Part shown: positions 43,135 through 63,835 of the stretch, one piece after another
Position numbering within the stretch: the stretch's first letter is position 1
Layout of the letters: each line of letters begins with the position of its first letter
Assembly: GCA_000004985.1 (NCBI GenBank)
Contig: GG738869.1
From: Naegleria gruberi
Lineage: Eukaryota
Direction: 5' to 3' (one strand)
Length of the DNA stretch: 64,000 bases
Translations under genes and position numbers: made by a program
The notes under the pieces: generated by a model
Told to the model about the DNA's origin: nothing
The model's input: only the letters and a program-made list of their open reading frames with translations
The model's database searches: none

Positions 43135-45111
43135 TTACTCTCTACTCTGTATCATGTTATTTACAATACGTTTGTAATTTGCTCTTGATAGAGAGACCAA
43201 ATCATCCAAACCAAATGAATAACTTGAATTATTATCGAGACAATATTCCATCATGCTAATGAGTTCCAAAATCTGTTCTCTAAACATTGGTATACTCACA
43301 ACAGTATCCTTCTTTGTTGTTGCATGTAAGGAGAATCTGGAAACGAGTGTAGAACGACATATTATAGTAATAGGAATTGTGGTTGACTTGATGAGTTTGT
43401 TTAGCTCTTTTAACACTCTCTTACAATCCATTGATGTTGGAAATAAGAACATGGCCCAATATAACTGAAAGTGTATACTCTCCTTTAACAATCTAGATTT
43501 GGATGTCAGATCTTGAATTGCTTGTTTTGTAACTTGGTGATAATCTAATGTATTGTCTTTCAGTACATTCATCCATCCAATTAACAACTTAGTGGCAAAC
43601 AGAATTGGAGAATTCCCAAAATTGAGCATTAAGAAATTCAAATCATTTCGAGCCAAATGAAATTCTGCTTGTTGGGCTAGAAAGATTGATCTGTTTAGAT
43701 AGGCATTGAATCTATCTCTAGCATGAGTTGCATTTGTACATGCCATATCAAAATATTGTCTAGCCCTTACATAATTTCCATTCAGTTCCATAACAAAAGC
43801 AACATTGACCATTGCACTAATGTACCTAGAATCTATTCGAATGGCATTTAGAGAATTATCCTTAGACTGTTTCCTCAGATTTAGAATTTCAGTTGCTTGC
43901 TCCAAATTAGACCTTGCCTCAAGTTGACGAGAAAGAGCCAACTGTACAAGTGCCTTATTATTGAGAGCTCGTGTATCATTGGGATTTAAACTATCTAATA
44001 CATACTGAAATTTAGAAGCAGCCTCATGAAAGTTTTCTGAAAACAGTAAATAATAGCCATGAAATTTGTATGAAAAGCTGCGAACATCATCCCAAATTCC
44101 TTTGACGATTGATTGACACATACGAACCAAGGAGAATTCAACTTGGTTATATCGAATTTGACCAACCTTTGTAACTTGAGAAAATTTGTTTTCACTCTTT
44201 GCTAATTGTCCAACAAAGTCAACAAGGTCTGGATTCGGATTGTTGGTGGGGTTTGTTTCAGCTCGATCTTGGAACATGTAGAGCCGAATAATAATTTCTT
44301 CCATAGTTTCGTATTGAGGAATTCTAGTTTCTTGACTTTGAAAACAACTCCATAACAATGGTACAAGATTACTCTCCTCCAATCTGTGTCTAGCTTCTTC
44401 AGAATCATTTTCGTATAGAATTGCCGCAATTTCATCATTCTCCAAGGTTGAAAATGTTTGATTTAGATTTCCTGTAATTAATTGAAATAAAATTGACCCC
44501 AAGGCAAAGACATCATAGGTTTCACTACTTCCTTCACTTGGATAGTTGTTTCCACAACTGTTTGAAAACTCATCATCATCATCAAGAACATCTCCAACAT
44601 GTTGCATCTTTTCAAAATCTGCAAGGACTATTCTAATCACATCGTTTTCATAGCTTTCAACAAGAATATTCTTCAATGTTATATCTCTGTGCACAATGTT
44701 GTTATGATTCCTCAATTCGACAAGAGCACTCGCTAGTTGATAACCTATTTGATATATGATTGGAAATGGAAGTAATCTCATTTGTTTAGTTGTCTCATCA
44801 AACAACATTGAATACAGATCACACTTATAGAATGGCATTTCAATTACCAGTGCATTGTTTTCAAAGTAAGATCGGTAAATTTTCACAATGTTTGGATGGT
44901 CCACCTTTTCTATCATTTCTGCAATTTCCTTTTGTTTTTGTAAATGTTCATCAAGTTTCTCACATTTCATATTATTTTCTTCCCTCTCAATTCTATAAAC
45001 CTTATTTGTGGATATTTCACGAATGACGTGGATTAGAATAGGGGAACGACGACTAGTGTGCAGTAATTGATAGTTGACTTTGTCTTTTTTCCATTTTTCA
45101 GTAATAGACAT
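43135..45111 (-). CDS. Kinase-like (probable pseudokinase) N-terminal domain fused to a TPR-like C-terminal helical region
   Basis: 'IVHRDITLKNILV' (HRD retained), 'LADFEK' (DFG replaced by DFE) and no GxGxxG loop. The C-terminal half has TPR-like helical repeats. ATG at 45111. Confidence 0.65.
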   Translation of the reverse strand: MSITEKWKKDKVNYQLLHTSRRSPILIHVIREISTNKVYRIEREENNMKCEKLDEHLQKQKEIAEMIEKVDHPNIVKIYRSYFENNALVIEMPFYKCDLYSMLFDETTKQMRLLPFPIIYQIGYQLASALVELRNHNNIVHRDITLKNILVESYENDVIRIVLADFEKMQHVGDVLDDDDEFSNSCGNNYPSEGSSETYDVFALGSILFQLITGNLNQTFSTLENDEIAAILYENDSEEARHRLEESNLVPLLWSCFQSQETRIPQYETMEEIIIRLYMFQDRAETNPTNNPNPDLVDFVGQLAKSENKFSQVTKVGQIRYNQVEFSLVRMCQSIVKGIWDDVRSFSYKFHGYYLLFSENFHEAASKFQYVLDSLNPNDTRALNNKALVQLALSRQLEARSNLEQATEILNLRKQSKDNSLNAIRIDSRYISAMVNVAFVMELNGNYVRARQYFDMACTNATHARDRFNAYLNRSIFLAQQAEFHLARNDLNFLMLNFGNSPILFATKLLIGWMNVLKDNTLDYHQVTKQAIQDLTSKSRLLKESIHFQLYWAMFLFPTSMDCKRVLKELNKLIKSTTIPITIICRSTLVSRFSLHATTKKDTVVSIPMFREQILELISMMEYCLDNNSSYSFGLDDLVSLSRANYKRIVNNMIQSRE

Positions 45112-45236: not shown

Positions 45237-46739
45237 TTATAATACAATTTGTACAAATTCATTGATCAAGTGACTGTCATGCATTTTGTATCTTGTCATG
45301 GTATCATTTCCAATTCTTTCCAATTCAACTAAGCAATCATCTAAATCCTTCTTTGTGTGAGCACTAGAAATGCAGAATCTTACTCTGGCCAAAGCAGTTG
45401 GACAAGCAGGAGCACCAACAATAACAATGGCAATTCCTCTCTCGAGGCAAATTCTAGAAAATGCAATCAATTTTGTCAAGTGATAAATCATCATGACGAT
45501 AACAGGTGAATCTCTATCTGAAATAATTTCAAATCCAAGTTTTTTCAAAGAATCCCCAAAGTAATTGGTATTGAAACTCAATTGGTCTAATTTTTCCTTT
45601 CCAATACTTGTGTTATCTTCACCCATAATGCAAGTGAGAGCTGACAATGCCTGTTGGGCACAAGGAATTGATATTGAAGTACCATAAATCAATCCAAAGC
45701 AAGATTTTTTCAAATAATCAATGACCTCAGCATCTCCAGAAATGTATCCTCCCACAGAATTAAAACTCTTTGTAAAGGTTCCCATCAAGATGTCAATATC
45801 CTTTGGGTCAACATTTTGCTGTTCACAAACACCTCTTCCAGTTTTACCCAAAGCTCCACACGAATGAGCCTCATCCACATAGAGATGGAACTTGTATTGC
45901 TTCTTCAATTCAACTACTCTTTTCAAATTGACAATTTCACCTTCCATACTGTAAATTCCCTCAACAATGACAATAATCTTCTTCCATGGTTTTCTATTTC
46001 CTGGTCCTGGTTGACCATCAATAATGTTCTTTCTCAATAATTTCTCCAAATGATCCATATCATTGTGTCTGAAACGAAGAACTGTTGGAGTACCTTCTGA
46101 AGCTCTAGTTCCATTCACAATACTTGAATGGTTCAAAGAATCGGACAAGATGAGACAATCTCTAGTTGGAGCCAATAATGGAATAACTGTAGAATTGGTT
46201 GCAAATCCCATGGACACAACCATTGCACTTTCCTTTCCAATAAATCTAGCAACTCTCTTTTCCAATTCTCTATGAATTGGAGTATAACCATATTCAGAAT
46301 ATGCAGAACCAGAAGCAACACCATATTTATCAAAACTCTCCAAAACCTGATCAACTACATGTGAAGGACTTTCAGAAAATCCTAGATAATTATAACTAGC
46401 CATATTTAAACAACTTTTCAATTTACCATTCGTGTCAATATTTGCAACTCTTTCAGTGTTTGGATTTCTCATCATGACTTGAATATGTGAAGATGGTCTG
46501 CTTGCAATCGGTCTGTGGAAACAATCAGAACATTTCCCATAGATTCTTCTCACAAAGAAATCATCATCTACGAGGGGTTTCTTACTAGCTTCATCAGGAA
46601 ACCTTTCATAATTTGTTTTATCGATCGGACCAATGAAGAGAATATGAAACAAATCGCTGATCTTTCCCAATATAAATACAATTAGTAGATTTGTATGGGT
46701 TAGAAATAAAGTCAACGGGGAAGGATCACAATGCGTCAT
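45237..46739 (-). CDS. LCB2: Serine palmitoyltransferase long-chain-base subunit 2 (LCB2/SPTLC2), alpha-oxoamine synthase family
   Basis: PLP-lysine motif 'GTFTKSFNSVGGYISG'. 'NMASYNYLGF', 'DEAHSCGALGKTGRG' and 'RRIYGKCSDCFHRP' are hallmarks of SPT subunit 2. Confidence 0.85.
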   Translation of the reverse strand: MTHCDPSPLTLFLTHTNLLIVFILGKISDLFHILFIGPIDKTNYERFPDEASKKPLVDDDFFVRRIYGKCSDCFHRPIASRPSSHIQVMMRNPNTERVANIDTNGKLKSCLNMASYNYLGFSESPSHVVDQVLESFDKYGVASGSAYSEYGYTPIHRELEKRVARFIGKESAMVVSMGFATNSTVIPLLAPTRDCLILSDSLNHSSIVNGTRASEGTPTVLRFRHNDMDHLEKLLRKNIIDGQPGPGNRKPWKKIIVIVEGIYSMEGEIVNLKRVVELKKQYKFHLYVDEAHSCGALGKTGRGVCEQQNVDPKDIDILMGTFTKSFNSVGGYISGDAEVIDYLKKSCFGLIYGTSISIPCAQQALSALTCIMGEDNTSIGKEKLDQLSFNTNYFGDSLKKLGFEIISDRDSPVIVMMIYHLTKLIAFSRICLERGIAIVIVGAPACPTALARVRFCISSAHTKKDLDDCLVELERIGNDTMTRYKMHDSHLINEFVQIVL

Positions 46740-47438: not shown

Positions 47439-49445
47439 ATGTCTCAACAACCTTCAAGCTGCCTTTTATTGTCTCTACCCGACGAATGTCTATCACTGGT
47501 TTTTTCCAACCTCTCCATACAAGAACTATTCTTCCGAGCCAGATCTACCTGTAGAAATTTTCATGAAATTATTGTGGGTATCGCTTCACCATTTCAACAA
47601 AAGGAAAACAAGAATTGCTTGATAAGAAATCAAAAGTTGAAAATTTTGTGTTTAAATAATAATCCAATCAGATTAAAATCACTGTGGGAGTGTATTAGAA
47701 AGGGTTATTTTGAAGAATCAGTAACTAAATTCAGTATTACTGCTAGAAGAACTGAATTGTTGGAAACTTTGCTTGACAAGAATGATTTCTTTGTAAAATA
47801 CTTTTCAAATTTGGAATGTTTAAAATTTGGATCAAAGAATTTGTGCAGTGAACATATTTCTGAATTGTTTAATCCTGATAATTCCAAACATTTAAGAAAG
47901 TTAACAATATTGAAGTTGGCAAATAATAATTTGGATATCAAAACAGCAAGGAGCATAGCCAAGTGTGAAAACTTAACTAATTTGACATCACTAGATTTGA
48001 GCACTAATGTTATGGAAGGTGACTGTATAGAATTACTAACGAGTCCATATTTAGAAAAGTTAACAAATCTCAATTTGAGTGGTAATTATATTACAACAAT
48101 ATTATGGAAAGAAAAATTCAAATTCAAAAACTTGGAAAAGATATCAATTGAAAATCCATTTGAGTTCGTTTTCAATAATCAATCTGAAACATATTTATTT
48201 AGCAAGCTCACATATCTAGATGCTTCTGACTCAATTGAGGAGGAAAAAAGATTCTCTGCTATGAAAAAGTTTGATTCCATACCAACAATCACATATTTGA
48301 ATTTAAATTATGTAGAATTAACACAAGAATCCATACTATCCCTTATTGCAGATAGTAGATGCCTTTCCAAGTTGGAAAATTTAGAATTAATCGGTTGCTC
48401 ACTTACTGGAACTGGATTTGCAATCTTGACTAGAAGCAGATATTTATCAAATTTGAAAAATCTGGTTGCTGAAAGTAATGACATTGATTTTGAAGGTTTT
48501 GTACACTTTGGAACAGATTCGTTTACTTTGAAGAATCTAATTACTCTAGATTTAATTTCAAATGACTTTAGCGTGAAATCTTATGAATATTTATTAAGAG
48601 AACCCTCTTTAACAAAATTGGAGAAACTTTATTGTGATAATGTTGATGAGGTTGAGGCAAAATACATTGCAGAACACCAAGAAAATATTACAGGAATAAC
48701 TGATTTGGTATTTACTGGCTATTCTGAAATGGAAGATGACAGTATGAAATATTTGGCCATGTTAAAATTACTCAAACTCAAGAAATTGAAATGCACTGGC
48801 ACAGGAGGCACCTTTTCAGGATTGATTTACTTTTTAGAAAATTGCACTTGTGAAAATTTGGAAACATTAGAATTTGGTAGGGTAAAATTTACAAATATTG
48901 ACGAGCAAATGAAGGCCATCTCATCACTACTCTCCAATAAGCACTTCTCCAAGTTGGAAACCCTAACTTTGGATGGACTTGCTGATGAACCTTTGAGAAT
49001 GTTATTGGATAATATGGACGACGATAAGTTATTGAGCAAACTTTCAACTTTATCAATTTCAGAAATTAATGACGATGCATTCAGAGTTCTAACAAGTCAT
49101 CCAAATAGTTCCAAATTGAAAATGCTTGCTCTTATGGAAGGAGAGCTTTCAGATGAGTCAATTGAACATTTTGTTAATAGTCCACACTTTCATGAGCTTA
49201 ATTATTTGGATTTGATTGGAACTGAAATATCACGTGAATCGAGTAAGCGTATTGCTCACAGTACCAACATTCCAAATCTCGAATATTTATTTGGTTCTTT
49301 TATTTTGGCTGATTTCGAACAGGAAACTAATTTACCGAAACTTTCTCATCTCTATTTAACAGAAAATGGTTTGGAAACCCCAAAAGATGATGATGATGAT
49401 GGATTGTATGAAGCAACAGAAGTGGAAGATCAACTTTCAAATTAA
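47439..49445 (+). CDS. F-box / leucine-rich-repeat (RNI-like) protein
   Basis: N-terminal F-box 'LPDECLSLVFSNLSIQELFFRARSTCRNFHEII'. About 15 LRR-RI type repeats follow (LTNLTSLDLSTN..., LSKLENLELIGCSLTGTG...). Confidence 0.75.
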   Translation: MSQQPSSCLLLSLPDECLSLVFSNLSIQELFFRARSTCRNFHEIIVGIASPFQQKENKNCLIRNQKLKILCLNNNPIRLKSLWECIRKGYFEESVTKFSITARRTELLETLLDKNDFFVKYFSNLECLKFGSKNLCSEHISELFNPDNSKHLRKLTILKLANNNLDIKTARSIAKCENLTNLTSLDLSTNVMEGDCIELLTSPYLEKLTNLNLSGNYITTILWKEKFKFKNLEKISIENPFEFVFNNQSETYLFSKLTYLDASDSIEEEKRFSAMKKFDSIPTITYLNLNYVELTQESILSLIADSRCLSKLENLELIGCSLTGTGFAILTRSRYLSNLKNLVAESNDIDFEGFVHFGTDSFTLKNLITLDLISNDFSVKSYEYLLREPSLTKLEKLYCDNVDEVEAKYIAEHQENITGITDLVFTGYSEMEDDSMKYLAMLKLLKLKKLKCTGTGGTFSGLIYFLENCTCENLETLEFGRVKFTNIDEQMKAISSLLSNKHFSKLETLTLDGLADEPLRMLLDNMDDDKLLSKLSTLSISEINDDAFRVLTSHPNSSKLKMLALMEGELSDESIEHFVNSPHFHELNYLDLIGTEISRESSKRIAHSTNIPNLEYLFGSFILADFEQETNLPKLSHLYLTENGLETPKDDDDDGLYEATEVEDQLSN

Positions 49446-49718: not shown

Positions 49719-49800
49719 GTAATTCGAATACAGACGAAACTCAGACAAATCAAGAAGAAGTCGGGACGAATTGCTTGTGGATCCACAAATTGTTTCTACC

Positions 49801-52035
49801 ATGTCTTATTGGGAGAAATCAATGAGAGAGGGTGTTGCGTCATCATTTGTGTTTTTCATGGAATTAATTAGAAATTTATATGTTTCAATAATTAGTTTAG
49901 TTTCGTATGGATATAGAAGAAGGAATTTATACAAAATTTATAGAAAGTTCGGAAGAGAAAAGGCTATTTACTTGAGTTTCCAGCTTCATTTATTGTGGAT
50001 TAGTCTATTATGCTCAATTATTGTCTGTGCTGTCTTGTTACCTTTACATTTGACAGGTAGAGAAATTGACAACTCGGAATATGCATATAATATCGTTGCT
50101 CTTACCTCTGCTCTCAGAGCAGCAACTTCACCAGTCAAGATGTTTGCTCACGTAGCCATTCTAATTGTGTTTATAATTATTACATTAGTTTTCATGGTTT
50201 CTTTCAATAGAAATAGGTTTAGTTCTTCACTTCTTTTGGTAGGTGAAGATTCTAATAGCACAGAACAGGATTCTACCCTTTCCAATGACGAAACTGTTAT
50301 CATTTCTCCATTTACAATAGTTTTAGATGGAATTCCAAAAGAATCATCTCAGAAAAGTGTCGAACAATTCATTGAAGAAAATTTTAATGGTGGATTGAGT
50401 GCGAATGATGAAAATAGTAAGATTGTAAAGATATTTCATGTGCCAAATCTTGTGGATCGGTTAAATCTCAAAGAATTGGAAGAACATTTGGAAAGAGAAT
50501 TGGAACATTTCATGCATTTAAAAGGAAAATCAAATTATGATGTTGCCAAACGTCACATAGTTCATGAAATGAGACCATTGTACTCGGATGATTTGAGATT
50601 CAAATTGTGTGGATGTACTACATATAGTACCAATTTGAAAACTATGACTACTGATGAGGCAGTAGAATATTTAAGATTGGAATATTCAGATTGTAAAAGA
50701 ATGGTGGAACAATGGGATGGAGAATATACTTCAATGTTTCTTACAGATGAAAGACAATCACAAGATGAGGAATATTTATCTCAAATCAAACAAGTGAAAT
50801 CATCTGGAAAGTGCTTTATAGTTTTTAAAAAGGTTGAACATGTTGATGAAGCAATTGAAAAGAATCGAATAATGTTCAATGATTCTTCAGTTTCCTTGAT
50901 GAAACTATTAATTGAACCGCAAGATATCAATTGGCACTTTATTGGCGGTACCTCCAAATACTTTTCCTTGAGAAACTTTTGCATGATTAGTTTAATATTC
51001 TTTGTATTGTTGGTATTTTCTGGACCACCATCCATTTTACAATCACTTCAAGCATTGGGATCTCCTATTCTTAAAGCTGTCAAACTTGGTGACTTGTCTG
51101 ATTTACTATTTCACTACTGTCCTTCTCTGTTGATTTTCATTTTCAGCAAATTGTTTCCAATATTTTTCAAAAAGATTACTCAAACAGAGAAGCACCTTTC
51201 CAAATCATTTTACAGTAGGATATTATTAGTGAGATTGTTTACATTTTCCATTTTGAATATTCTCATTTTACCAGGATTGTGGATTATCTCAGCTTTCCTC
51301 TTTTTAGTTTTCGCAAATGATGGCAAACATTTGGATATCATGTTCTTGCCAAAAACAATTGAAACAATGATTTCTACATTGCTACAATTCATGGTTATGG
51401 AGAATGTTTACGAATTGGTCAGATTTGGCAAAACACTTTATTATATTTGGAAGACAACATTTAATTGTTACAGAAAAGCAAGAACTCCCACTCAAATTTT
51501 AAAACTAATTAAGGAAACTAAGGAATTCGATATGGAAGAGAATGTTTCAAACATGTTGGGTATATTATGTATGTCGATGGTCTATTCATTCTGTTGTCCA
51601 CTTGTAATGCCATTGGCATTCCTTTGCATCTTTATCAAGCACTGGTTTGATAGATGTGTTATTGAAGAGGAATTCACTCATCACTCCAATATCAATGAGA
51701 AGGATGACAAACTCGATTTTACCAGTAGTTTGAGATTATCCAAGCTATTGATCGTTCTTGTTCTTACAACATTGAGCATTGTTGGAATGATTGTAATTTT
51801 AGGATTTTCTTACTTGTTTTTTACTAGTCTAATGTATATTATACATTTGGGAGTTTGTGGAGCTTGCTTAGCTATTCTTCTATTAATTACCTTGGCGTTG
51901 ATTTTCAAACAAAACTCAAGTGTCAGATCAAATAAGAAAGATATTGCAGAACAGCAAGAACGAATGCTTGATCCAAATTCATTCTCACAACAAGTTCAAG
52001 ATATTCTCAATGTGGAAAATATTCTCAAGTTTTGA
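49801..52035 (+). CDS. OSCA/TMEM63/CSC1-family mechanosensitive (hyperosmolality-gated) cation channel (DUF221, 7TM)
   Basis: The architecture matches OSCA: TM1-2, then a cytosolic RRM-like domain ('TIVLDGIPKESSQKSVEQFIEENF', compare TVLVRNVP..VEHFF). 'FIVFKKVEHVDEA' precedes a 7-TM block ('CCPLVMPLAFLCIFIKHWFDRC'). The first ATG in frame is at 49801 (the track start at 49771 is TTG). Confidence 0.75.
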   Translation: MSYWEKSMREGVASSFVFFMELIRNLYVSIISLVSYGYRRRNLYKIYRKFGREKAIYLSFQLHLLWISLLCSIIVCAVLLPLHLTGREIDNSEYAYNIVALTSALRAATSPVKMFAHVAILIVFIIITLVFMVSFNRNRFSSSLLLVGEDSNSTEQDSTLSNDETVIISPFTIVLDGIPKESSQKSVEQFIEENFNGGLSANDENSKIVKIFHVPNLVDRLNLKELEEHLERELEHFMHLKGKSNYDVAKRHIVHEMRPLYSDDLRFKLCGCTTYSTNLKTMTTDEAVEYLRLEYSDCKRMVEQWDGEYTSMFLTDERQSQDEEYLSQIKQVKSSGKCFIVFKKVEHVDEAIEKNRIMFNDSSVSLMKLLIEPQDINWHFIGGTSKYFSLRNFCMISLIFFVLLVFSGPPSILQSLQALGSPILKAVKLGDLSDLLFHYCPSLLIFIFSKLFPIFFKKITQTEKHLSKSFYSRILLVRLFTFSILNILILPGLWIISAFLFLVFANDGKHLDIMFLPKTIETMISTLLQFMVMENVYELVRFGKTLYYIWKTTFNCYRKARTPTQILKLIKETKEFDMEENVSNMLGILCMSMVYSFCCPLVMPLAFLCIFIKHWFDRCVIEEEFTHHSNINEKDDKLDFTSSLRLSKLLIVLVLTTLSIVGMIVILGFSYLFFTSLMYIIHLGVCGACLAILLLITLALIFKQNSSVRSNKKDIAEQQERMLDPNSFSQQVQDILNVENILKF

Positions 52036-52082: not shown

Positions 52083-53189
52083 TCAATAAAAAATGGAAAT
52101 ATCAGAAAATGTTAAATTATTCAATTGACCTTTCAGATGTGTAAAGAATATTATTTCTTCTGAAGATTTAGTTTCAAAAAATGTTCTTTGATAAATAAAT
52201 CCATGAAAACGTCCAAAAACAATTGTTTCCTTTTCATTCTCAATTGCTATTTGAAGGGGTTCCTCTTTAAGCAGATGAAAATGTGTGGCAGATCTTACGG
52301 CAGTTGACATACTGGAGCAGCAGACATCACTGAATGATCCCTCAATTTTAATAGGTTGAAATTCTTTGACTATTCTTGGCGAAACTAATCCAGTACATTG
52401 CTTTGAATTGTTTAGTCCTGCACAATAAATTTTACCATCCTCTAATAGTAAAGCTAGATGAGAAAATCCACCAACCATCTTTTTAATTCCACAATTGATT
52501 GATAATTTCAATTCATTCAACTCTCCACTAACATTGCCAAATCCAATTCCATTCTTTCTAATAAATAGACGATTGTTTTCCAATAAGATGAATTGTGCAT
52601 TATTGGTGGAACAACATGCAAATTGTTTCACTCTATATTCCGGAAATGGAAAATGAATATTTTCAACCATTTCCTCTTTTTCATAAATAGTTCCATCAAT
52701 TGTCTGAACTAACCAACAAGTTGACATGATTCCACTTCCAACACAATTAAGTAATGAAGTGTGTGAGATGAAGAATTTGTGCATTTTCAATGTTTGAGTA
52801 TCAAATTCAAACAAAGATCCATCCATCATTTCGAATAAAATAAATCTTGAATTATTCGAAACAACTCTCTTCATAGATTGCCCTCTTTTTGAATTGCTCA
52901 ACTCAGACAGCAATGAACTAAACTTTTTTTTCTCTCCTTGAAATACGAAATATTCACTCTCACTCCCTTCGAACAGAAACATTGAATAGGAACCATCACT
53001 ATTCCCACCACAACAAATATACGAAACATGTATTGTTGCATTTTCTTGAATCTCGGAGGGTGAAAAATTATTTTCTTCAGCTTTAGGAAAATTTGAAGGT
53101 TTAATTTCCATCTTGTGCCAACGAGCAGGAAAATCCAAACCTAAATTCTTAAATTTGGTGTGAAAGATTTCACCATAAACTTTGAGCAT
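52083..53189 (-). CDS. RCC1-like repeat protein (beta-propeller); start uncertain
   Basis: 'GGFSHLALLLEDGKIYCAGLNNSKQCTG' and 'CCGGNSDGSYS' are RCC1-type blades. The track start at 53252 is GTG and is preceded by an in-frame TAG coinciding with a possible acceptor. The first in-frame ATG is at 53189. Confidence 0.5.
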   Translation of the reverse strand: MLKVYGEIFHTKFKNLGLDFPARWHKMEIKPSNFPKAEENNFSPSEIQENATIHVSYICCGGNSDGSYSMFLFEGSESEYFVFQGEKKKFSSLLSELSNSKRGQSMKRVVSNNSRFILFEMMDGSLFEFDTQTLKMHKFFISHTSLLNCVGSGIMSTCWLVQTIDGTIYEKEEMVENIHFPFPEYRVKQFACCSTNNAQFILLENNRLFIRKNGIGFGNVSGELNELKLSINCGIKKMVGGFSHLALLLEDGKIYCAGLNNSKQCTGLVSPRIVKEFQPIKIEGSFSDVCCSSMSTAVRSATHFHLLKEEPLQIAIENEKETIVFGRFHGFIYQRTFFETKSSEEIIFFTHLKGQLNNLTFSDISIFY

Positions 53190-53495
53190 TTTTTTTGTAA
53201 ACTTTTTCTGAGAGAAACGATAGACTTTGAGAATGTGGAAAATTTTCTCCACTTTTATTGGATACTATTGCAAACTCTCAAATTACAGTAACTCCTCCAA
53301 ATGAATAATTTACTTTCCAATAATTATAGATTATTAGAATTGATAACAAGATGGAATTATAGAACTATAGCAGGTGAAACAAATTTCAAATCAACACATC
53401 CTTTGCCTCCCAACTACTGATTTTCAATATTGTAAATAAACTTTTAGAAACTTTTCTCAAATTAAATAATTTTAGTTTTTAGTAAACAAAAAAAA

Positions 53496-55046: not shown

Positions 55047-56533
55047 TTATTGAGATTGTTTTACAGCTCTTACAGTTTGAGCTAATCTTTTCATCTCACT
55101 TAATTGATTAGAACATGATTTGATAATACTATTCTGTCTATCAAAAATTCCTCTCAAAGTCATATCACGAGCTGGTGGCAATGGTTGTGAATATTCGGTA
55201 ACAATTGTTGGTTGAGGCTCAAATGTATTGAAATGTTGAGAAAAGTAGGATGGTTCAGTGGTGATGGTTGGTTTATCATCCAATTCAATATCATTTGATT
55301 GTGGAATTGATTGTGACTCAAATGAAATTAAATCAACATTTGATTGGGCTTCACTTGGAGCTTGTGAAATGGCATCATCATTATCAATGACATCAAATTC
55401 TTCATCTTCAAAATTTACATCACCTTCCAATTTTCTCTTACTCAACATTAATTCATATTCACCCAAAAGTTTACTGTAAATTCCACCAATAACCATGGAA
55501 GGCAAAGCAACAATCACAATACCAGACAAGATGGTCATGATAGCAATAATTCTTCCCAAAACTAAGAGTTTGGTTCTTAATAAATGTTAAATTAATGAAT
55601 TAACATACCTGTAACTGGAGCCATGTCACCATAACCAACTGTAGCAATGGTAACAACGCTGTACCACATACAAATTAAAATATTTGAAAATGGTGAAGGT
55701 GTACCATCTGGTCTTAACCATTGTCCAGATTTGAGATCATATTTTCCACGTTCAGCATAATAAACAAGAGTACTACAAATAAGAGCACCCATAAATATTA
55801 AAACAGAGATTGATAAGAGCATATCCATAGATCTTCTCAATGAAACAATAAGCAATTGAAATTTAGCAGAATATCTTGTCAATTTGATAAGTTTTAAAAG
55901 TTTTAAAACTCTGAAAATTGTCAAAACTTGAAGATTGACATTTAACCAAGTACTGGCATCTGCCATATAAATTATTAAATCAAAGTAAAATGGAACGAAA
56001 CTAGCAATATCAATTAAATTGGCAGGAGCTTTAACAAAATGTCTAAAATCACCCCAAGTATTTACATAAGCAGCCATTCTTGCAAAATATTCAAGCATGA
56101 AACAAACTGATAAAAATCCAGTAATAAGCAGCCACATGATTTCGAATGGGAAAAAGAATGGAAAAGATCTCAAAATTAAACATAGGGTTTGAATAACAGT
56201 CATGAGTGACGTTATCACTGTAATGATCATGGCTACATATGATGATCTAGGATGTTCCAATAATAAATATAATTTTTGTTTCCATGTTCTTTCCTTATTA
56301 CTTTGTGGAATACTCTTGATAATATTAATAGTTCTTCTACTTCGGAATAGTCTTGAATTTTCAATTACTTCCAATGTTTTCTTTTTTTCCTTTTCCTCTA
56401 ACTTGAGTTTTGCTTTGATTTCTTTTAAAGTGGTTGGTGGTTGTTGTTCGATAGCTTCCTTTTCATGCTGTGATGATGAGGAAGGCGATGCGGGTGTTGC
56501 TGTTGTTGTAGGTGTTGGCGTTGTTGTACTCAT
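55047..56533 (-). CDS. Voltage-gated K+ channel alpha subunit (6-TM, Shaker-like); join(55047..55561,55609..56533)
   Basis: S4 voltage sensor 'RVLKLLKLIKLTRYSAKFQ' has basic residues at every third position. Selectivity filter 'TVGYGD'. S6 'GRIIAIMTILSGIVIVALP'. A 47-nt GTATGT...CTTAG intron (55562..55608) splits 'APVT|VLGRII'. Total length is 1440 nt, in frame. Confidence 0.85.
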
Positions 56534-61037: not shown

Positions 61038-62228
61038 TTATTTAAAAACAAGAACAGTTTCATAGGAAATATCTGGAATTCTATTGGTAAGAAGTAATTG
61101 TCCAGTAGTTGAGTTGATTGTGAGGTCCATGTATGTTCCTTGGAATTTGTGTTGATTTTTGGCCTTTCCAAGATTTGGAATAGTGTTACCATTAAACATT
61201 GTTTCTGATCCATCTGGATGTACAATAACAATTGCATTACTTTCACAAGTGTTCATATTTCTATAACCTGCATAGATACAATTACTATTCTTGTCAAACT
61301 TCAATGATTCAATAGCACCAAGCTTTGGCAATTGTTGAGTACCAACAACTTTTCCATTTGGCTTCAAGATGGTCAACTCACTTGTGTATGAATTGGAAAG
61401 GCAAATATTACCATCCTTATTCAAACAGATGCAACTAACTTTCTGAGCTACACAATAGCCACTCATATCTTGACCAACATTGGCAAGAACTTTACCATTT
61501 GAACTATCAACTACACATACAGAAGGTTGTTGAATTCCAGAATAGAGAGAATCTCTTGCACAGTAAATTTTACCATTCTCATCAATGGTGCAATCTTTCA
61601 TATCTGAATCCAATGTTACTGCCCATTTTCTTTGTCTTCCATCGATGGATATCTTGTGAAGCTTGGTTTTCTGAAGAACAATAATACCATCACCTTTTGG
61701 ATCGACTTCCAAAGCATCGATTGCAAAGTCCAATTCTTTCAATTCGAAATTGTAAAGGAAATCCAAGGTTGTGGCATTGAACACAAAAATTCTAATAATG
61801 TGTCTATTCTCAGCTACAAAGATGAGGTTATTTTGTCTGTCGTAGGCAATTTTCTGTGGTTGTTGCATGGTAAGATTGAAATCTTCACGATCACCCAAAC
61901 ATTCAACAAAATCAAAATCTCCAGAGAAGTCAATTGGGTCTTTTGAGAGATGTTCAGTAGTTTTAACAAACTTTCTCTTGGTCATGGTTGAAGAGCTACT
62001 TGAGGTTGAAGTGCTTGATTGACTGGTCTCGTAGTCATCTTTATAAGATGGTTTTTCATCTCTTCCACGATTGTTACTTCTGACATTTGGAAGCAAATTC
62101 TTGATACGGCTTGCAGAACGAAGAATATTCTCAACATTGTTTAGAATTGAAGACATTTTGTTTTTTAGTGTTTTGATTATCATAGTTTGACCATTTTCTC
62201 TTTTTAAAATGTTTGATCTTAATGTCAT
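61038..62228 (-). CDS. NHL-repeat beta-propeller protein with Ser-rich N-terminus
   Basis: NHL-type blades ('NGKIYCARDSLYSGIQQPSVCVVDSSNGKVLANVG', 'DGNICLSNSYTSELTILKPNGKVVG'). ATG at 62228. Confidence 0.6.
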   Translation of the reverse strand: MTLRSNILKRENGQTMIIKTLKNKMSSILNNVENILRSASRIKNLLPNVRSNNRGRDEKPSYKDDYETSQSSTSTSSSSSTMTKRKFVKTTEHLSKDPIDFSGDFDFVECLGDREDFNLTMQQPQKIAYDRQNNLIFVAENRHIIRIFVFNATTLDFLYNFELKELDFAIDALEVDPKGDGIIVLQKTKLHKISIDGRQRKWAVTLDSDMKDCTIDENGKIYCARDSLYSGIQQPSVCVVDSSNGKVLANVGQDMSGYCVAQKVSCICLNKDGNICLSNSYTSELTILKPNGKVVGTQQLPKLGAIESLKFDKNSNCIYAGYRNMNTCESNAIVIVHPDGSETMFNGNTIPNLGKAKNQHKFQGTYMDLTINSTTGQLLLTNRIPDISYETVLVFK

Positions 62229-62419: not shown

Positions 62420-63835
62420 TTACACAAATGAAATATCAGAAAACTTGTTGTTCAAGCTGGAATACAACTTGTTGATGAATTTTTCATCTTTTCTCTTCAA
62501 ATTATTAGAAATGAAAGGTTGGGAGTTATTGGAAACAATTCTTTGCATGCACGATTGTACTTCTTCTTCATTGGTCGTATTACACACGTGATAATCAAAC
62601 TTGGAGTCTTTACAATATTGTTGGAATAGGTTTTCATACTCGTTAATGGTTGAATTGAGTACACTTCTTTCCAAATTAAGATTGGACATGGATTTCAATT
62701 CTTCTTTCATAGAATCACAAACTTGTCTTTGATAACGAGCTTCTACTGAGAGTTTTTCTTGGAGAATATCTGGTTTTGAAAAGATTACAACCTTTCTGCT
62801 ATTCTTCAATTGTTTCTTGGTCAATAATTCTTTAAAGGTCTTTAAGCTTTCGTCCATTCTATTGGTTTTGGAATCTTCTATGGATTGCTGATTGAATTCA
62901 GAGAGGGAAACAAAGAGTAACAAGACATTGGTTCCTTCCAAATCGAGTGAATTCCATCTTCTTCTTTCCATCTTCTTTCCTCCAGCTGTAACCAAATTCA
63001 ATTCATGACTAGTGGAAAATCTTCTAATGGTTTCTCTTTGTGTCGAATTCGTGCTATTATATAATTGATATTTACATTTTTGAAGGCAGAGTTTACCATT
63101 CTTGAATACTTGATTCATATTTTCTGTGAAATGCTTTGCATCCTTATTCTTTTCATAGTAAGATTTCAGGCAAGTTGACCAAATTCTTTCAAAATCTGTG
63201 ATAATTATTTGAATTTCATCATCTTTCGGGGAGCTAACATCTTCTGTTGATTCCTCCCCACCAAAGAGAATCTTATTTGTCATCTCTGAACATTCTGGCC
63301 ATCTCTCATGTCCATCTTGTCTGTAACTCTTTGCTATCTGACTCATATGTCTACACAAACACTCAAAGTGTTCAGAAGTCGACACAGCCTTTGAATTGCT
63401 CTGATATTGCTCTGTCAATGTATTTACAAACGTACTCTTTCCACTATCTGAACCCCCCAAACACAACACATTCATTCTCTTGTTATTCATCTGCTGTTCA
63501 GTAATAGCACTGGCAGCAGCAGTAGTAGCATCAACACTCTCAATATTTACACAGTTCAAATTATCTTCATCATAACCATCACGTTCCTTTTTCTTGTTAA
63601 CATCGGATTCAACATTCACTTCATTAAGAATGCAACAATCACAATCAGAATCCTTATCTTCTTTAGCGGTGATTGCTGTTGAGAGGGACTGAGAAACACA
63701 CTCTATTAAACTCATTTGTTTTGTTTTATATATTGAATTGTATCTCGAGTTCCTAAAGTATTTAAATGAATTGCAGAATTGGTCTCTTGCTTTTTTGTTG
63801 TCCACCTTATTTGGAATTTTTAAAAAGATGCGCAT
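62420..63835 (-). CDS. Heterotrimeric G-protein alpha-subunit-like protein (divergent; catalytic Gln replaced)
   Basis: P-loop 'NVLCLGGSDSGKSTFVNTL'. Switch I-II 'RRFSTSHELNLVTAGGKKMERRRWNSLDLEGTNVLLLFVSLSEFNQ' aligns to TTGI...DVGGQRSERKKW...FCVALSDYD. NKxD is replaced by 'VVIFSKPDIL'. G5-like 'VCNTTNEEEV'. ATG at 63835; an alternative start is at 63715 (MSLIEC). Confidence 0.7.
   Translation of the reverse strand: MRIFLKIPNKVDNKKARDQFCNSFKYFRNSRYNSIYKTKQMSLIECVSQSLSTAITAKEDKDSDCDCCILNEVNVESDVNKKKERDGYDEDNLNCVNIESVDATTAAASAITEQQMNNKRMNVLCLGGSDSGKSTFVNTLTEQYQSNSKAVSTSEHFECLCRHMSQIAKSYRQDGHERWPECSEMTNKILFGGEESTEDVSSPKDDEIQIIITDFERIWSTCLKSYYEKNKDAKHFTENMNQVFKNGKLCLQKCKYQLYNSTNSTQRETIRRFSTSHELNLVTAGGKKMERRRWNSLDLEGTNVLLLFVSLSEFNQQSIEDSKTNRMDESLKTFKELLTKKQLKNSRKVVIFSKPDILQEKLSVEARYQRQVCDSMKEELKSMSNLNLERSVLNSTINEYENLFQQYCKDSKFDYHVCNTTNEEEVQSCMQRIVSNNSQPFISNNLKRKDEKFINKLYSSLNNKFSDISFV

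Follow-up and report, generated by a model that had tools for sequence, protein, structure and literature searches.

The xKPD clade of Gα-like proteins and its atypical, probably GTPase-dead member NAEGRDRAFT_49275 from Naegleria gruberi

Introduction

What can a Gα protein still do when the residues on which its nucleotide cycle depends have been replaced? The question is raised by an open reading frame on the minus strand of Naegleria gruberi contig GG738869.1 (GenBank assembly GCA_000004985.1), which lies in the 64,000-nucleotide stretch of DNA analyzed here (the window). The primary source on atypical Naegleria Gα proteins is reportedly Anantharaman et al. 2011 (Gene 475:63). The N. gruberi Gα repertoire, with ~44 members, is among the largest known (PMC8584482), and the same review interprets the deviating catalytic motifs of some of these proteins as a sign that nucleotide-dependent activity is reduced or lost (PMC8584482). 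G-protein signaling is explored as a drug target in the related N. fowleri, a lethal pathogen (PMC9283941). An earlier note on this DNA had described the product as G-alpha-like, GTPase-dead or nucleotide-altered, and had treated it as a singular mutant.

Results

An intact single-exon gene

The frame at 62420..63835 (minus strand) is intact and encodes 471 residues counted from its first ATG. Its product is 100% identical to NAEGRDRAFT_49275 (XP_002677043, 431 residues), which is labeled merely "predicted protein" of Naegleria gruberi and whose deposited start corresponds to Met41 of the longer frame. At the local base composition, 471 stop-free codons are expected by chance with P ~3e-16. 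The gene comprises the following features:

62423..63715, minus strand: coding sequence of NAEGRDRAFT_49275, single exon, 431 residues (matches the deposited protein at 100% identity; Pfam G-alpha score 145.3 bits, E 3.2e-42)
62420-62422, minus strand: stop codon TAA, overlapped by AATAAA
63716..63835, minus strand: 40 in-frame codons, running from the first ATG of the longest frame up to the annotated start (list of open reading frames)

The upstream codons are rich in Lys, Asn and Phe and are probably 5' untranslated. Searches of all six-frame open reading frames with clade and general profile HMMs identified this gene as the sole G-alpha in the window, with no tandem paralogues. Viewed by eye, the C-terminal tail of the clade described below (...L-T/S/C-D-I/V-x-I/L) resembles the first strand of a BTB domain, which led us to suspect a missed downstream exon. 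Both ideas were rejected, as six tails yielded no Pfam BTB match at E values up to 10 and the 190 bp between the stop codon and the next gene carry stops in all frames, with AATAAA at the stop itself.

A two-domain Gα fold

The G-alpha-like assignment is borne out by the Pfam score and by an AlphaFold model whose two domains both match solved structures of G-alpha. The PF00503 (G-alpha) match scores 145.3 bits against a cut-off of 48.8 bits and extends over residues 109-434 of the 471-residue frame, corresponding to profile positions 9-330 of 333; every one of the best PDB sequence matches is a G-alpha. The AF2 model has a pLDDT of 79.6 and a pTM of 0.76, with the Ras-like core above 90, and all 50 of the 50 Foldseek PDB matches listed are G-alpha structures (among them Gαq, Gαi and Gα13), with ~340 aligned columns and target TM scores of 0.61-0.75. 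Both the AF2 secondary structure and Foldseek reveal a Ras-like GTPase domain interrupted by an all-helical insertion between P-loop/α1 and switch I:

63065..63400, minus strand: all-helical domain insertion, approximately residues 106-217 (divergent sequence; six helices predicted; full-length Foldseek G-alpha matches)

The helical-domain insertion had been reported as retained and is indeed present, as helices spanning residues 113-217 that Foldseek aligns to G-alpha (DSSP helices of the model: 113-133, 140-154, 165-189, 191-203 and 211-217). NAEGRDRAFT_49275 is a genuine G-alpha homologue encoded by an intact gene.

Catalytic and guanine-binding motifs

The nucleotide-contacting motifs map as follows:

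63431..63457, minus strand: P-loop, G87-G-S-D-S-G-K-S-T95 (alignments; codons read directly)
63035..63061, minus strand: switch I, residues 219-227, Y-N-S-T-N-S-T-Q-R (two alignment registers)
62954..62992, minus strand: switch II, residues 242-254, VTAGGKKMERRRW (ungapped alignment)
62768..62779, minus strand: G4 guanine motif, S313-K-P-D316, replacing NKxD (alignments)
62573..62590, minus strand: G5 region, H376-V-C-N-T-T381, replacing H-x-T-C-A-T (alignments; clade consensus H-I-V-N-x-T)

The P-loop GGSDSGKST fits the Walker A consensus GxxxxGK[ST], in agreement with its earlier description as kept. The same description overlooked Ser89, which our alignments place at the glycine of Gαi1 G42 and Ras G12; this position is Gly in 85 of 94 sequences outside the clade described below, and GGSDSGKST thereby departs from the GxGESGKST loop of competent Gα proteins.

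Switch I can be aligned in two registers. In register A, obtained from four alignments (phmmer to 4fid, two MAFFT alignments and a clade-versus-canonical hhalign), S221, S224 and Q226 occupy the positions of R178, T181 and G183; in register B, given by two other alignments, these positions are held by Y219, T222 and S224. The RxxTxGI motif with its cis Arg finger, found in competent Gα proteins, is absent. The earlier note had both the Arg and the Thr of switch I retained: the Thr persists as a hydroxyl residue (S224 or T222), but the Arg is replaced in either register, by Ser221 or Tyr219. The G183 position is likewise non-Gly in both (Gln226 or Ser224). R227 in 'TQRET' sits at the start of strand β2, 6 or 8 residues past the Arg-finger position.

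Switch II reads V242-T-A-G-G-K247-K-M-E-R-R-R-W254, compared with D-V-G-G-Q-R-S-E-R-K-K-W in canonical proteins, as first described. Its register is fixed by the lack of indels and by the conserved β3 hydrophobic residues and ERRxW core with Trp254. Thr243 and Lys247 stand at the positions of Gαi1 D200 and Q204, and G203 is kept as Gly246; the DxGGQ motif of competent Gα proteins, with its catalytic Gln, is represented by TAGGK. Replacement of the DxxG Asp by Thr probably weakens Mg2+ coordination. The segment following Trp254, NSLDLEG, departs from the IHC-FE of canonical proteins and of clade members alike, so that Gβγ or effector contacts may differ.

The replacement of NKxD by SKPD, reported previously, holds, the register being set by the Lys, the Asp and the downstream EKL. 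A second change in the guanine pocket had gone unnoticed: TCAT is replaced by V-C-N-T (residues 377-380). The protein thus carries SKPD and VCNT where competent Gα proteins have NKxD and TCAT, with the Lys and Asp of G4 kept; these are the two NKxD residues that stack on and specify guanine.

The earlier note had itself raised the possibility of a mis-registered alignment, with canonical motifs present a few residues away. This is ruled out, since conserved ungapped flanks fix switch II and G4 and no canonical DxxGQ, NKxD, [NT]KxD or RxxTxG occurs elsewhere in the whole protein; six independent alignments agree on both motifs. The changes at G4 and G5 tend to go together: Asn is found at G5 in 24 of 31 sequences with a non-Asn G4 (Thr or Ser for the NKxD Asn), versus 9 of 104 with Asn at G4. 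This pairing is seen also in G-alphas that keep both the Gln and the Arg, and the guanine pocket therefore looks rewired, not lost.

A Naegleria/Willaertia clade with xKPD at G4

The xKPD clade is delimited by this analysis and is not a curated family. Our screen covered 155 sequences (the query, 5 word-search matches and 149 exhaustive-search matches), 23 of which carry at least one clade signature (xKPD, H-[IV]-[IVC]-N or a [FY]ISPCL tail). Among the sources with a name, N. gruberi contributes 8, N. lovaniensis 2 and Willaertia magna 1, and the clade is also represented in metagenomes. A profile search with the clade alignment gave at least 14 matches.

The NKxD Asn is found in 0/20 clade members versus 112/124 non-clade sequences; its position is taken by Thr in 17, Val in 2 and Ser in 1 (n = 20), followed by Lys in 19/20, Pro in 17/20 and Asp in 20/20, and Asn is present at G5 in 17/19. 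Gln occupies the Q204 position in a single clade member of 20 versus 115/124 outside the clade, and this position is highly variable (R, S, K, T, V, P, Y, M, D and the one Q). The switch I Arg is usually missing as well, and the members share a C-terminal extension of ~25-30 residues. The DxxG Asp is kept in 15/20, its loss, as in the query, being rare. Mean column identity within the clade is 18-28%; of all columns D316 alone is invariant, and conservation at K314 and G246 reaches at least 90%. The earlier description of the protein as nucleotide-altered finds no support here, as the Lys and Asp that specify guanine are kept in the query and, at 19/20 and 20/20, throughout a clade that is only ~25% identical.

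NAEGRDRAFT_49275 carries the clade signature: SKPD at G4, HVCN at G5 and Lys247 in place of the switch II Gln. Its score is 229 bits with a leave-one-out clade HMM, compared with 148 bits for an HMM of 125 non-clade sequences. In a neighbor-joining tree, all 18 clade members fall into one group, but with weak bootstrap values (65% for 17 members, 22% for 18). Of the 43 columns conserved across the clade, 34 (79%) are kept in the query, which places it in the middle of the clade range of 55-93%; our expectation that it would be more degenerate than its relatives was dropped. Rather than the singular mutant it had been taken for, it is representative of a subfamily specific to its lineage, a lineage-typical atypical G-alpha of a kind already noted in the literature. 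TAGGK itself recurs in a metagenomic relative, P0012, at ~31% identity, and the neighbor-joining tree does not resolve the two TAGGK proteins as sisters.

The termini of the protein are as follows:

62423..62527, minus strand: C-terminal residues 397-431 (aligned to the leave-one-out clade HMM through '...kltDiei'; AF2 confidence low)
63545..63715, minus strand: N-terminal residues 1-57, predicted disordered, acidic, with the Cys cluster DSDCDCC (pLDDT <50)

Within the C-terminal tail, PFISNNLK aligns with the receptor-contacting tail of canonical proteins. It is followed by ~25 residues, comprising a predicted helix (411-424) and then FSDISFV, which are absent in canonical G-alpha and conserved in the clade. 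The whole corresponds to the clade-type extension (P)FISxxL ... L-[TSC]-D-[IV]-x-[IL], as PFISNNL...KFSDISFV aligned end-to-end on the leave-one-out clade HMM. At the other end, the protein starts with MSLIEC, without Gly2 or an MGxxxS myristoylation signal, and the Cys cluster lies at residues 25-28. Many clade paralogues have myristoylation-type starts (MGTKPS, MGSKSS, MGQKRS and similar).

These data bear on whether the gene might be a nonfunctional remnant of the Naegleria Gα expansion, a paralogue in decay that is annotated only because its frame is still open. No orthologue above ~30% identity was found among 5.8 billion clusters (word-indexed) or 1.84 billion representative proteins (exhaustive HMMER), the same searches returning none from N. 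lovaniensis, N. fowleri, Willaertia or the metagenome matches. Together with the bare annotation 'predicted protein', the lack of any mention of the gene's identifiers in the literature searched and a start without the MG myristoylation signal of many paralogues, this fits decay. We nevertheless consider decay highly improbable: 431 codons have stayed free of stops in an AT-rich genome (P ~3e-16) despite 25-30% identity to every relative, 79% of the clade-conserved columns are kept, including the clade-specific C-terminal tail, and the core of the fold is predicted with confidence by AF2.

Discussion

Proposed function

We propose, with a probability of roughly 0.55, that NAEGRDRAFT_49275, a Gα-fold member of this heterolobosean clade, would bind guanine nucleotide without canonical GTP hydrolysis and would act as a locked or nucleotide-independent adaptor or competitor. 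Sequence comparison shows that the clade has rewired its guanine pocket (NKxD to [T/S/V]KPD and TCAT to [IV][VC]N-x-T), lost both residues that catalyze in cis (the Arg finger in switch I and the Gln in switch II), usually changed the P-loop Gly equivalent to G42 and gained a conserved extension of ~25-30 residues past the normal receptor-contacting C-terminus. The protein might be constitutively GTP-loaded or effectively independent of nucleotide state within the very large G-protein network of Naegleria, and would not serve as a receptor-timed switch.

Guanine nucleotide binding most likely persists, since the Walker A GKST, the switch I hydroxyl, the γ-phosphate-sensing Gly246, Lys314 and Asp316 are kept. 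Conversely, the residues at the positions of G42 (Ser), R178 (Ser or Tyr) and Q204 (Lys) suggest that GTP cannot be hydrolyzed by the canonical Gα mechanism; each of these three positions is a classical GTPase-killing site of Gαi1 or Gαs (G42V, R178C and Q204L). The earlier prediction of a GTPase-dead protein is strengthened accordingly in its premises, as the Arg finger and the G42-equivalent Gly are replaced in addition to the change of Gln to Lys. The non-Gly residue at G183 would be expected to confer insensitivity to RGS proteins.

Thr243, Ser89 and the altered G5 could, instead of locking GTP, abolish nucleotide or Mg2+ binding. Taken further, the substitutions G42 to Ser, D200 to Thr, G183 to Gln, N269 to Ser and A326 to Thr would leave a nucleotide-free pseudo-GTPase scaffold, a purely Gα-shaped binding platform of the type proposed for plant XLG2, which we hold to be unlikely. 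Five nucleotide-contacting motifs are altered, among them the DxxG Asp that 15 of 20 clade members keep, and XLGs with strongly reduced nucleotide binding still function and bind Gβγ and RGS proteins (PMC8584482). Yet the elements that the protein retains, Walker A GKST, Lys314, Asp316 and Gly246, are exactly those that the clade conserves, which is hard to explain without a bound nucleotide, and T/S-KxD with Asn at G5 occurs also in Gα proteins that keep the Gln and the Arg. Moreover, the working G4 motif of dynamin is TKLD, and specific binding of guanine tolerates Thr or Ser where NKxD has its Asn. Dynamin and the clade have nothing else in common beyond this likeness (TKLD as against TKPD, with SKPD in the query), as dynamins are unrelated, large and activated by dimerization.

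The protein might also be a working GTPase with non-canonical catalysis, in which Lys247 would serve as a charge-neutralizing finger in cis or a partner GAP would supply the missing residue in trans. Rnd1-3, RhoH and Rap, Ras-superfamily members without the catalytic Gln, are either GTP-locked or reliant on GAP catalysis in trans; Rap has Thr at position 61 and is supplied with a catalytic Asn thumb by RapGAP. Basic residues are enriched where the clade has lost the Gln (7 of 20 members; R 4, K 3), TAGGK recurs in the ~31%-identical P0012, and the repertoire of the related N. fowleri exceeds 100 RGS-domain proteins (28 of the seven-transmembrane type and 79 others; PMC9283941). We judge such catalysis distinctly unlikely, as the variability of the Gln position within the clade is not what a conserved catalytic role predicts and, in the clade table, the members that have lost the Arg finger are not cleanly those that have gained Lys or Arg at the Gln site. 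In addition, G183S in Gα is an established loss of RGS binding, and the non-Gly residue at this position predicts the same here.

A further reading would have the xKPD clade consist of re-engineered Gα switches, not dead enzymes. The Asn that contacts guanine would have been relocated to G5 from its place in G4. The Gln site would hold a basic residue (Lys247, in the recurrent TAGGK) with a part in phosphate handling or Mg-independent nucleotide binding, and the new C-terminal module would provide coupling to a partner that is not a classical GPCR. We consider this reading very unlikely.

Under the favored reading of a GTPase-dead adaptor or competitor, a sizeable and conserved Gα subset without hydrolytic machinery but with the guanine-binding Lys and Asp would change how the Naegleria network is modeled: xKPD members would be locked or nucleotide-independent parts that could sequester Gβγ, RGS proteins or effectors. 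For NAEGRDRAFT_49275 itself, the main gain is that the label 'predicted protein' can give way to that of an atypical Gα-like protein in the xKPD clade, probably GTPase-dead.

Comparison with other GTPases

The xKPD clade may be viewed as a protist parallel to the plant XLGs. Like NAEGRDRAFT_49275, Arabidopsis XLG1-3 combine a Gα fold with deviated catalytic motifs; they are thought to be independent of nucleotide exchange and hydrolysis, and plant XLGs act independently of nucleotide while retaining Gβγ and RGS binding (PMC8584482). XLGs are, however, of plant origin and have a long N-terminal extension with nuclear localization and export signals, whereas the N-terminus of the Naegleria protein is just ~75 residues long and mostly disordered, its extension is C-terminal and it stems from an independent heterolobosean radiation. 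The likeness is one of functional analogy only.

Rnd1-3 and RhoH are small pseudo-GTPases that are constitutively GTP-bound. They and Rap, being small GTPases of another family without a helical domain, provide an analogy of mechanism only.

The GTPase-deficient Gαi1 mutants Q204L, R178C and G42V affect the same three positions that are naturally substituted here (K247, S221 or Y219, and S89), and 1as0 (Gαi1 G42V) is among the listed Foldseek structural matches. Those mutants each carry a single engineered or oncogenic change, whereas NAEGRDRAFT_49275 combines all three with rewired G4 and G5 motifs.

Compared with canonical Gα proteins (Gαi1, Gαq, Gα13, Entamoeba EhGα1 in 4fid and N. fowleri Gα7 in 6ne6), NAEGRDRAFT_49275 is without R178, Q204, D200, G42, G183, N269 and the Ala of TCAT, and it differs further in lacking an MG lipidation start, in its shorter αN helix and in a tail that runs past the receptor-inserting C-terminus. 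It shares with them the two-domain Ras-like and helical fold, the Walker A GKST, the switch II pattern GG-x3-ERxxW with its reporter Trp and a highly similar β4-α3 segment (SLSEFNQ..ED..TNRMDESL).

An atypical Gα encoded by a single exon

The Gα relative under study (hereafter the query) is encoded by an uninterrupted reading frame, and a stop-free run of its length has P ~3e-16 at the base composition of the AT-rich window (G+C ~33%).

62420..63835, minus strand: uninterrupted ORF, 471 aa from its first ATG (ORF list)
62423..63715, minus strand: CDS from Met41, 431 aa, 100% identical to a deposited "predicted protein" of Naegleria gruberi

The deposited protein is XP_002677043.1 (EFC44299.1, D2VG73, NAEGRDRAFT_49275), from a 747 kb scaffold, and the exact match identifies the window as N. 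gruberi nuclear DNA and the gene as a single exon. The TAA stop codon overlaps an AATAAA, and the next 190 bp are closed in all frames.

The query is a Gα by homology and by fold. It matches the Pfam G-alpha profile at 145 bits (cut-off 48.8) over nearly the entire profile, and its significant PDB sequence matches are all Gα subunits, the top one being Entamoeba EhGα1 (4fid). An AlphaFold2 model built from a 145-sequence alignment (mean pLDDT 79.6, pTM 0.76, Ras-like core >90) predicts a short αN helix, β1, the P-loop, α1, six helices (residues 113-217) and β2-β6 with helices, in this order, with residues 1-57 disordered. All 50 of the 50 Foldseek PDB matches listed are Gα structures (Gαq, Gαi, Gα13, Gαs, Gαt), aligned over ~340 columns with target-normalised TM scores of 0.61-0.75. 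These matches and the six predicted helices bear out the proposal, made in an earlier note from the sequence, that the helical-domain insertion is retained. The query starts with MSLIEC and has an acidic, disordered N-terminus with a CDCC cluster; many paralogues start with MGxxxS instead.

Substitutions at the catalytic positions

In the numbering of the 431-aa protein, switch II of the query reads V242-T-A-G-G-K-K-M-E-R-R-R-W254 where the canonical sequence is (V/I)-D-V-G-G-Q-R-S-E-R-(K/R)-K-W. The alignment is gap-free and its register is fixed by hydrophobic residues of β3 on one side and by the ERxxW segment on the other, so that, in Gαi1 numbering, D200 corresponds to Thr243, G203 is retained as Gly246 and Lys247 takes the place of the catalytic Q204. 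The ungapped alignments confirm the VTAGGK reading of the earlier note, with Gln replaced by Lys and the first Asp lost. Its reading of the G4 guanine motif NKxD as SKPD is equally supported by alignment of that region (I-F-S313-K-P-D316-I-L-Q-E-K-L versus F-L-N-K-x-D-L-F-x-E-K-I), in which Ser stands in for Asn and both Lys and Asp are unchanged. Scanning the whole query protein with regular expressions returned zero matches to NKxD, [NT]KxD, DxxGQ or RxxTxG; the objection that mis-registration conceals a nearby canonical motif is thereby answered, and the core observation holds. Thr at the Asp position of DxxG should weaken water-mediated Mg2+ coordination.

Switch I can be aligned in two registers. 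In the first, obtained with phmmer against 4fid, a 6-sequence MAFFT alignment, a clade MAFFT alignment and hhalign between clade and canonical profiles that were built independently, S221, S224, T225 and Q226 correspond to R178, T181, T182 and G183, respectively. In the second, obtained with a 145-sequence MAFFT alignment and a non-clade HMM, the equivalents lie two residues earlier (Y219, T222, S224). In both registers the Thr position that coordinates Mg carries a hydroxyl residue, and neither register places Arg at the finger position or Gly at G183; R227 of 'TQRET', at the start of strand β2, lies 6 or 8 residues downstream of the finger position. The retention of the switch I Arg and Thr proposed earlier is thus not supported, the Arg being the one observation in that note to fall.

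Two further departures are absent from the earlier note. The P-loop is G-G-S89-D-S-G-K-S-T, with Ser at the equivalent of Gαi1 G42 (Ras G12), a position occupied by Gly in 85 of 94 non-clade sequences, and the G5 motif is H-V-C-N-T-T where the canonical one is H-x-T-C-A-T. Mutations of G42, R178 or Q204 classically abolish GTPase activity in Gαi1 and Gαs, and mutation at the G183 position blocks RGS binding. With Ser89, a non-Arg finger and Lys247, all three classical GTPase-killing positions are substituted in the query, as is the G183 position, and the earlier description of the protein as 'GTPase-dead' is likely to be right.

The segment after Trp254 (N-S-L-D-L-E-G) differs even from clade relatives, which share I-H-C-F-E with canonical members, so Gβγ or effector contacts may be altered.

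A clade of Gα-like proteins with an xKPD motif

Searched exhaustively with HMMER, 1.84 billion representative proteins gave 1,899 matches at E <=1e-3; below 1e-30 the query stood alone, the next match being 30% identical, and a word-indexed search of 5.8 billion clusters yielded no close orthologue. The query is not a one-off: a distinct set of relatives is seen among the best matches. This clade, as delimited here, replaces NKxD with [T/V/S]-K-P-D and TCAT with Y-H-I-V-N-x-T, has a residue other than Gln in switch II and carries a C-terminal extension past the canonical end, consisting of (P)FISPCL and then ~25 residues ending in L-[T/S/C]-D-[I/V]-x-[I/L]. Its named members come from N. gruberi (8, one of them on the query's scaffold), N. 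lovaniensis (2) and Willaertia magna (1), the rest from metagenome contigs.

Residue states in non-clade and clade Gα sequences
Position: non-clade; clade
Gln at Q204: 115/124; 1/20 (otherwise R4, S4, K3, T3 and others)
Asn of NKxD: 112/124; 0/20 (T17, V2, S1)
Pro of KPD: uncommon (commonest K, R, V, T); 17/20
Arg finger: 103/~115; 4/19

Against a clade HMM from which it was left out, the query scores 229 bits, in an alignment that extends to the last tail residues; against an HMM of 125 non-clade sequences it scores 148 bits. All 18 sampled members group together in a neighbour-joining tree, with weak bootstrap values (65% for 17 members, 22% for 18). A decaying gene is very unlikely: of 43 columns with 75% conservation or more among the other members, the query keeps 34, which is mid-range for the clade (55-93%) and marks it as a typical member rather than an unusually decayed one.

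The member on the same 747,259-bp N. gruberi scaffold, outside the window, is P0059 (XP_002676985, NAEGRDRAFT_67917, 559 aa), with TKPD, HIVN and Arg at the Gln site; a long low-complexity insert directly before its switch I recalls one that has been described in N. fowleri Gα6. By eye, the clade tail (in the query 62423-62460, minus strand) resembles a BTB first strand, a likeness rejected when Pfam found no BTB in six tails (E up to 10). The window holds no downstream exon of the gene.

A probably rewired guanine pocket without conserved catalytic residues

The G4 Asp (D316) is the only invariant column in the clade, whose mean column identity is 18-28%; conservation is 90% or higher for the G4 Lys and for Gly246, which senses the γ-phosphate, and most members have a Walker A GK[ST]. 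This pattern appears to be the signature of proteins that still bind guanine nucleotide, and beside it we consider it unlikely that the query is a nucleotide-free scaffold.

The NKxD Asn is lost in step with the gain of an Asn in G5, where it takes the second position (Cys in TCAT). In the 135 sequences that have a residue at each of the two positions, G5-Asn occurs in 24/31 with a non-Asn G4 versus 9/104 with an Asn-G4 (Fisher P 2e-13, a value that common descent inflates). Several non-clade Gα homologues that keep both the Gln and the Arg finger, P0108, P0127 and P0050 among them, show this pairing too. TKLD is the working G4 of dynamins. Taken with the pairing in Gln- and Arg-keeping Gα proteins, this leads us to read SKPD as a rewired rather than disabled pocket, making the 'nucleotide-altered' alternative of the earlier note unlikely. 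In alignment A4, the non-clade homologues P0050, P0066, P0105, P0108, P0127 and P0150 keep the Gln, some also the Arg finger, and combine [T/S]KxD with the second-position G5 Asn, which suggests that moving the Asn out of G4 into G5 gives Gα proteins a viable alternative guanine pocket and is a recurrent change.

The catalytic positions vary across the clade and no new conserved residue takes their place, as predicted by loss of catalysis in cis. GTP hydrolysis by non-canonical or GAP-supplied catalysis would fit the Lys or Arg at the Gln site in 7/20 clade members and the recurrence of TAGGK in P0012, a metagenomic Gα-like protein (408 aa; locus L001, ENA contig ERZ929261 k127_235142, gene 338-1564). 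Its VTAGGK switch II is identical to the query's despite ~31% overall identity, and the two do not group together in the neighbour-joining tree. We find this alternative more doubtful still than a nucleotide-free scaffold.

A putative adaptor or competitor in the G-protein network

From the homology, fold, motif states, clade membership and conservation pattern we infer that the query binds GTP or GDP and that the canonical route of GTP hydrolysis, through Arg and Gln, would be closed to it. The protein would probably be RGS-insensitive, and its receptor-inserting C-terminus would be buried under the extra segment. Together these properties would make it an adaptor or competitor within the G-protein network of Naegleria that is either constitutively loaded or independent of nucleotide state, rather than a receptor-timed switch, a reading to which we assign a probability of roughly 0.55.

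A 2021 review gives N. gruberi ~44 Gα subunits, notes, with reference to a 2011 study, that catalytic motifs deviate in some Naegleria Gα proteins, which it reads as reduced or lost nucleotide-dependent activity, and describes the plant XLGs as atypical Gα proteins that act independently of nucleotide, yet keep Gβγ and RGS binding (PMC8584482); by analogy, the XLG family would be the best functional counterpart of the query. A study of N. fowleri identified 13 putative Gα, six of which it characterised in recombinant form; neither the catalytic Gln of switch II nor a TKPD-type motif comes up in its main text, and its supplements contain no such motif text (PMC9283941). The literature searched makes no mention of the query's identifiers. 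The gene is an uncharacterised member of a recognised kind, the naturally GTPase-deficient Gα-like proteins, and delimiting the clade by xKPD, HIVN and C-terminal tail may add detail to published knowledge.

Neighbouring genes

43135-45111, minus strand: protein kinase with TPR repeats
45237-46739, minus strand: class I/II aminotransferase
47439-49445, plus strand: F-box and LRR protein
49771-52035, plus strand: RSN1_7TM (OSCA/TMEM63-like calcium-dependent channel) ORF
52083-53252, minus strand: RCC1-repeat protein
55592-56533, minus strand: Ion_trans (voltage-gated-type cation channel) ORF
61038-62228, minus strand: unrelated NHL-repeat gene, 396-aa ORF (NHL-repeat match 26.8 bits)

On the same strand, 190 bp separate the Gα stop from the NHL-repeat ORF downstream, and stops in all three frames between the two mark them as separate genes, not exons of one. 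The kinase, aminotransferase, F-box/LRR and RCC1 genes are ordinary eukaryotic neighbours with no evident link to the Gα gene. The two membrane-channel genes, RSN1_7TM and Ion_trans, lie near each other; the Ion_trans ORF probably represents a single exon, or a fragment, of some larger gene.
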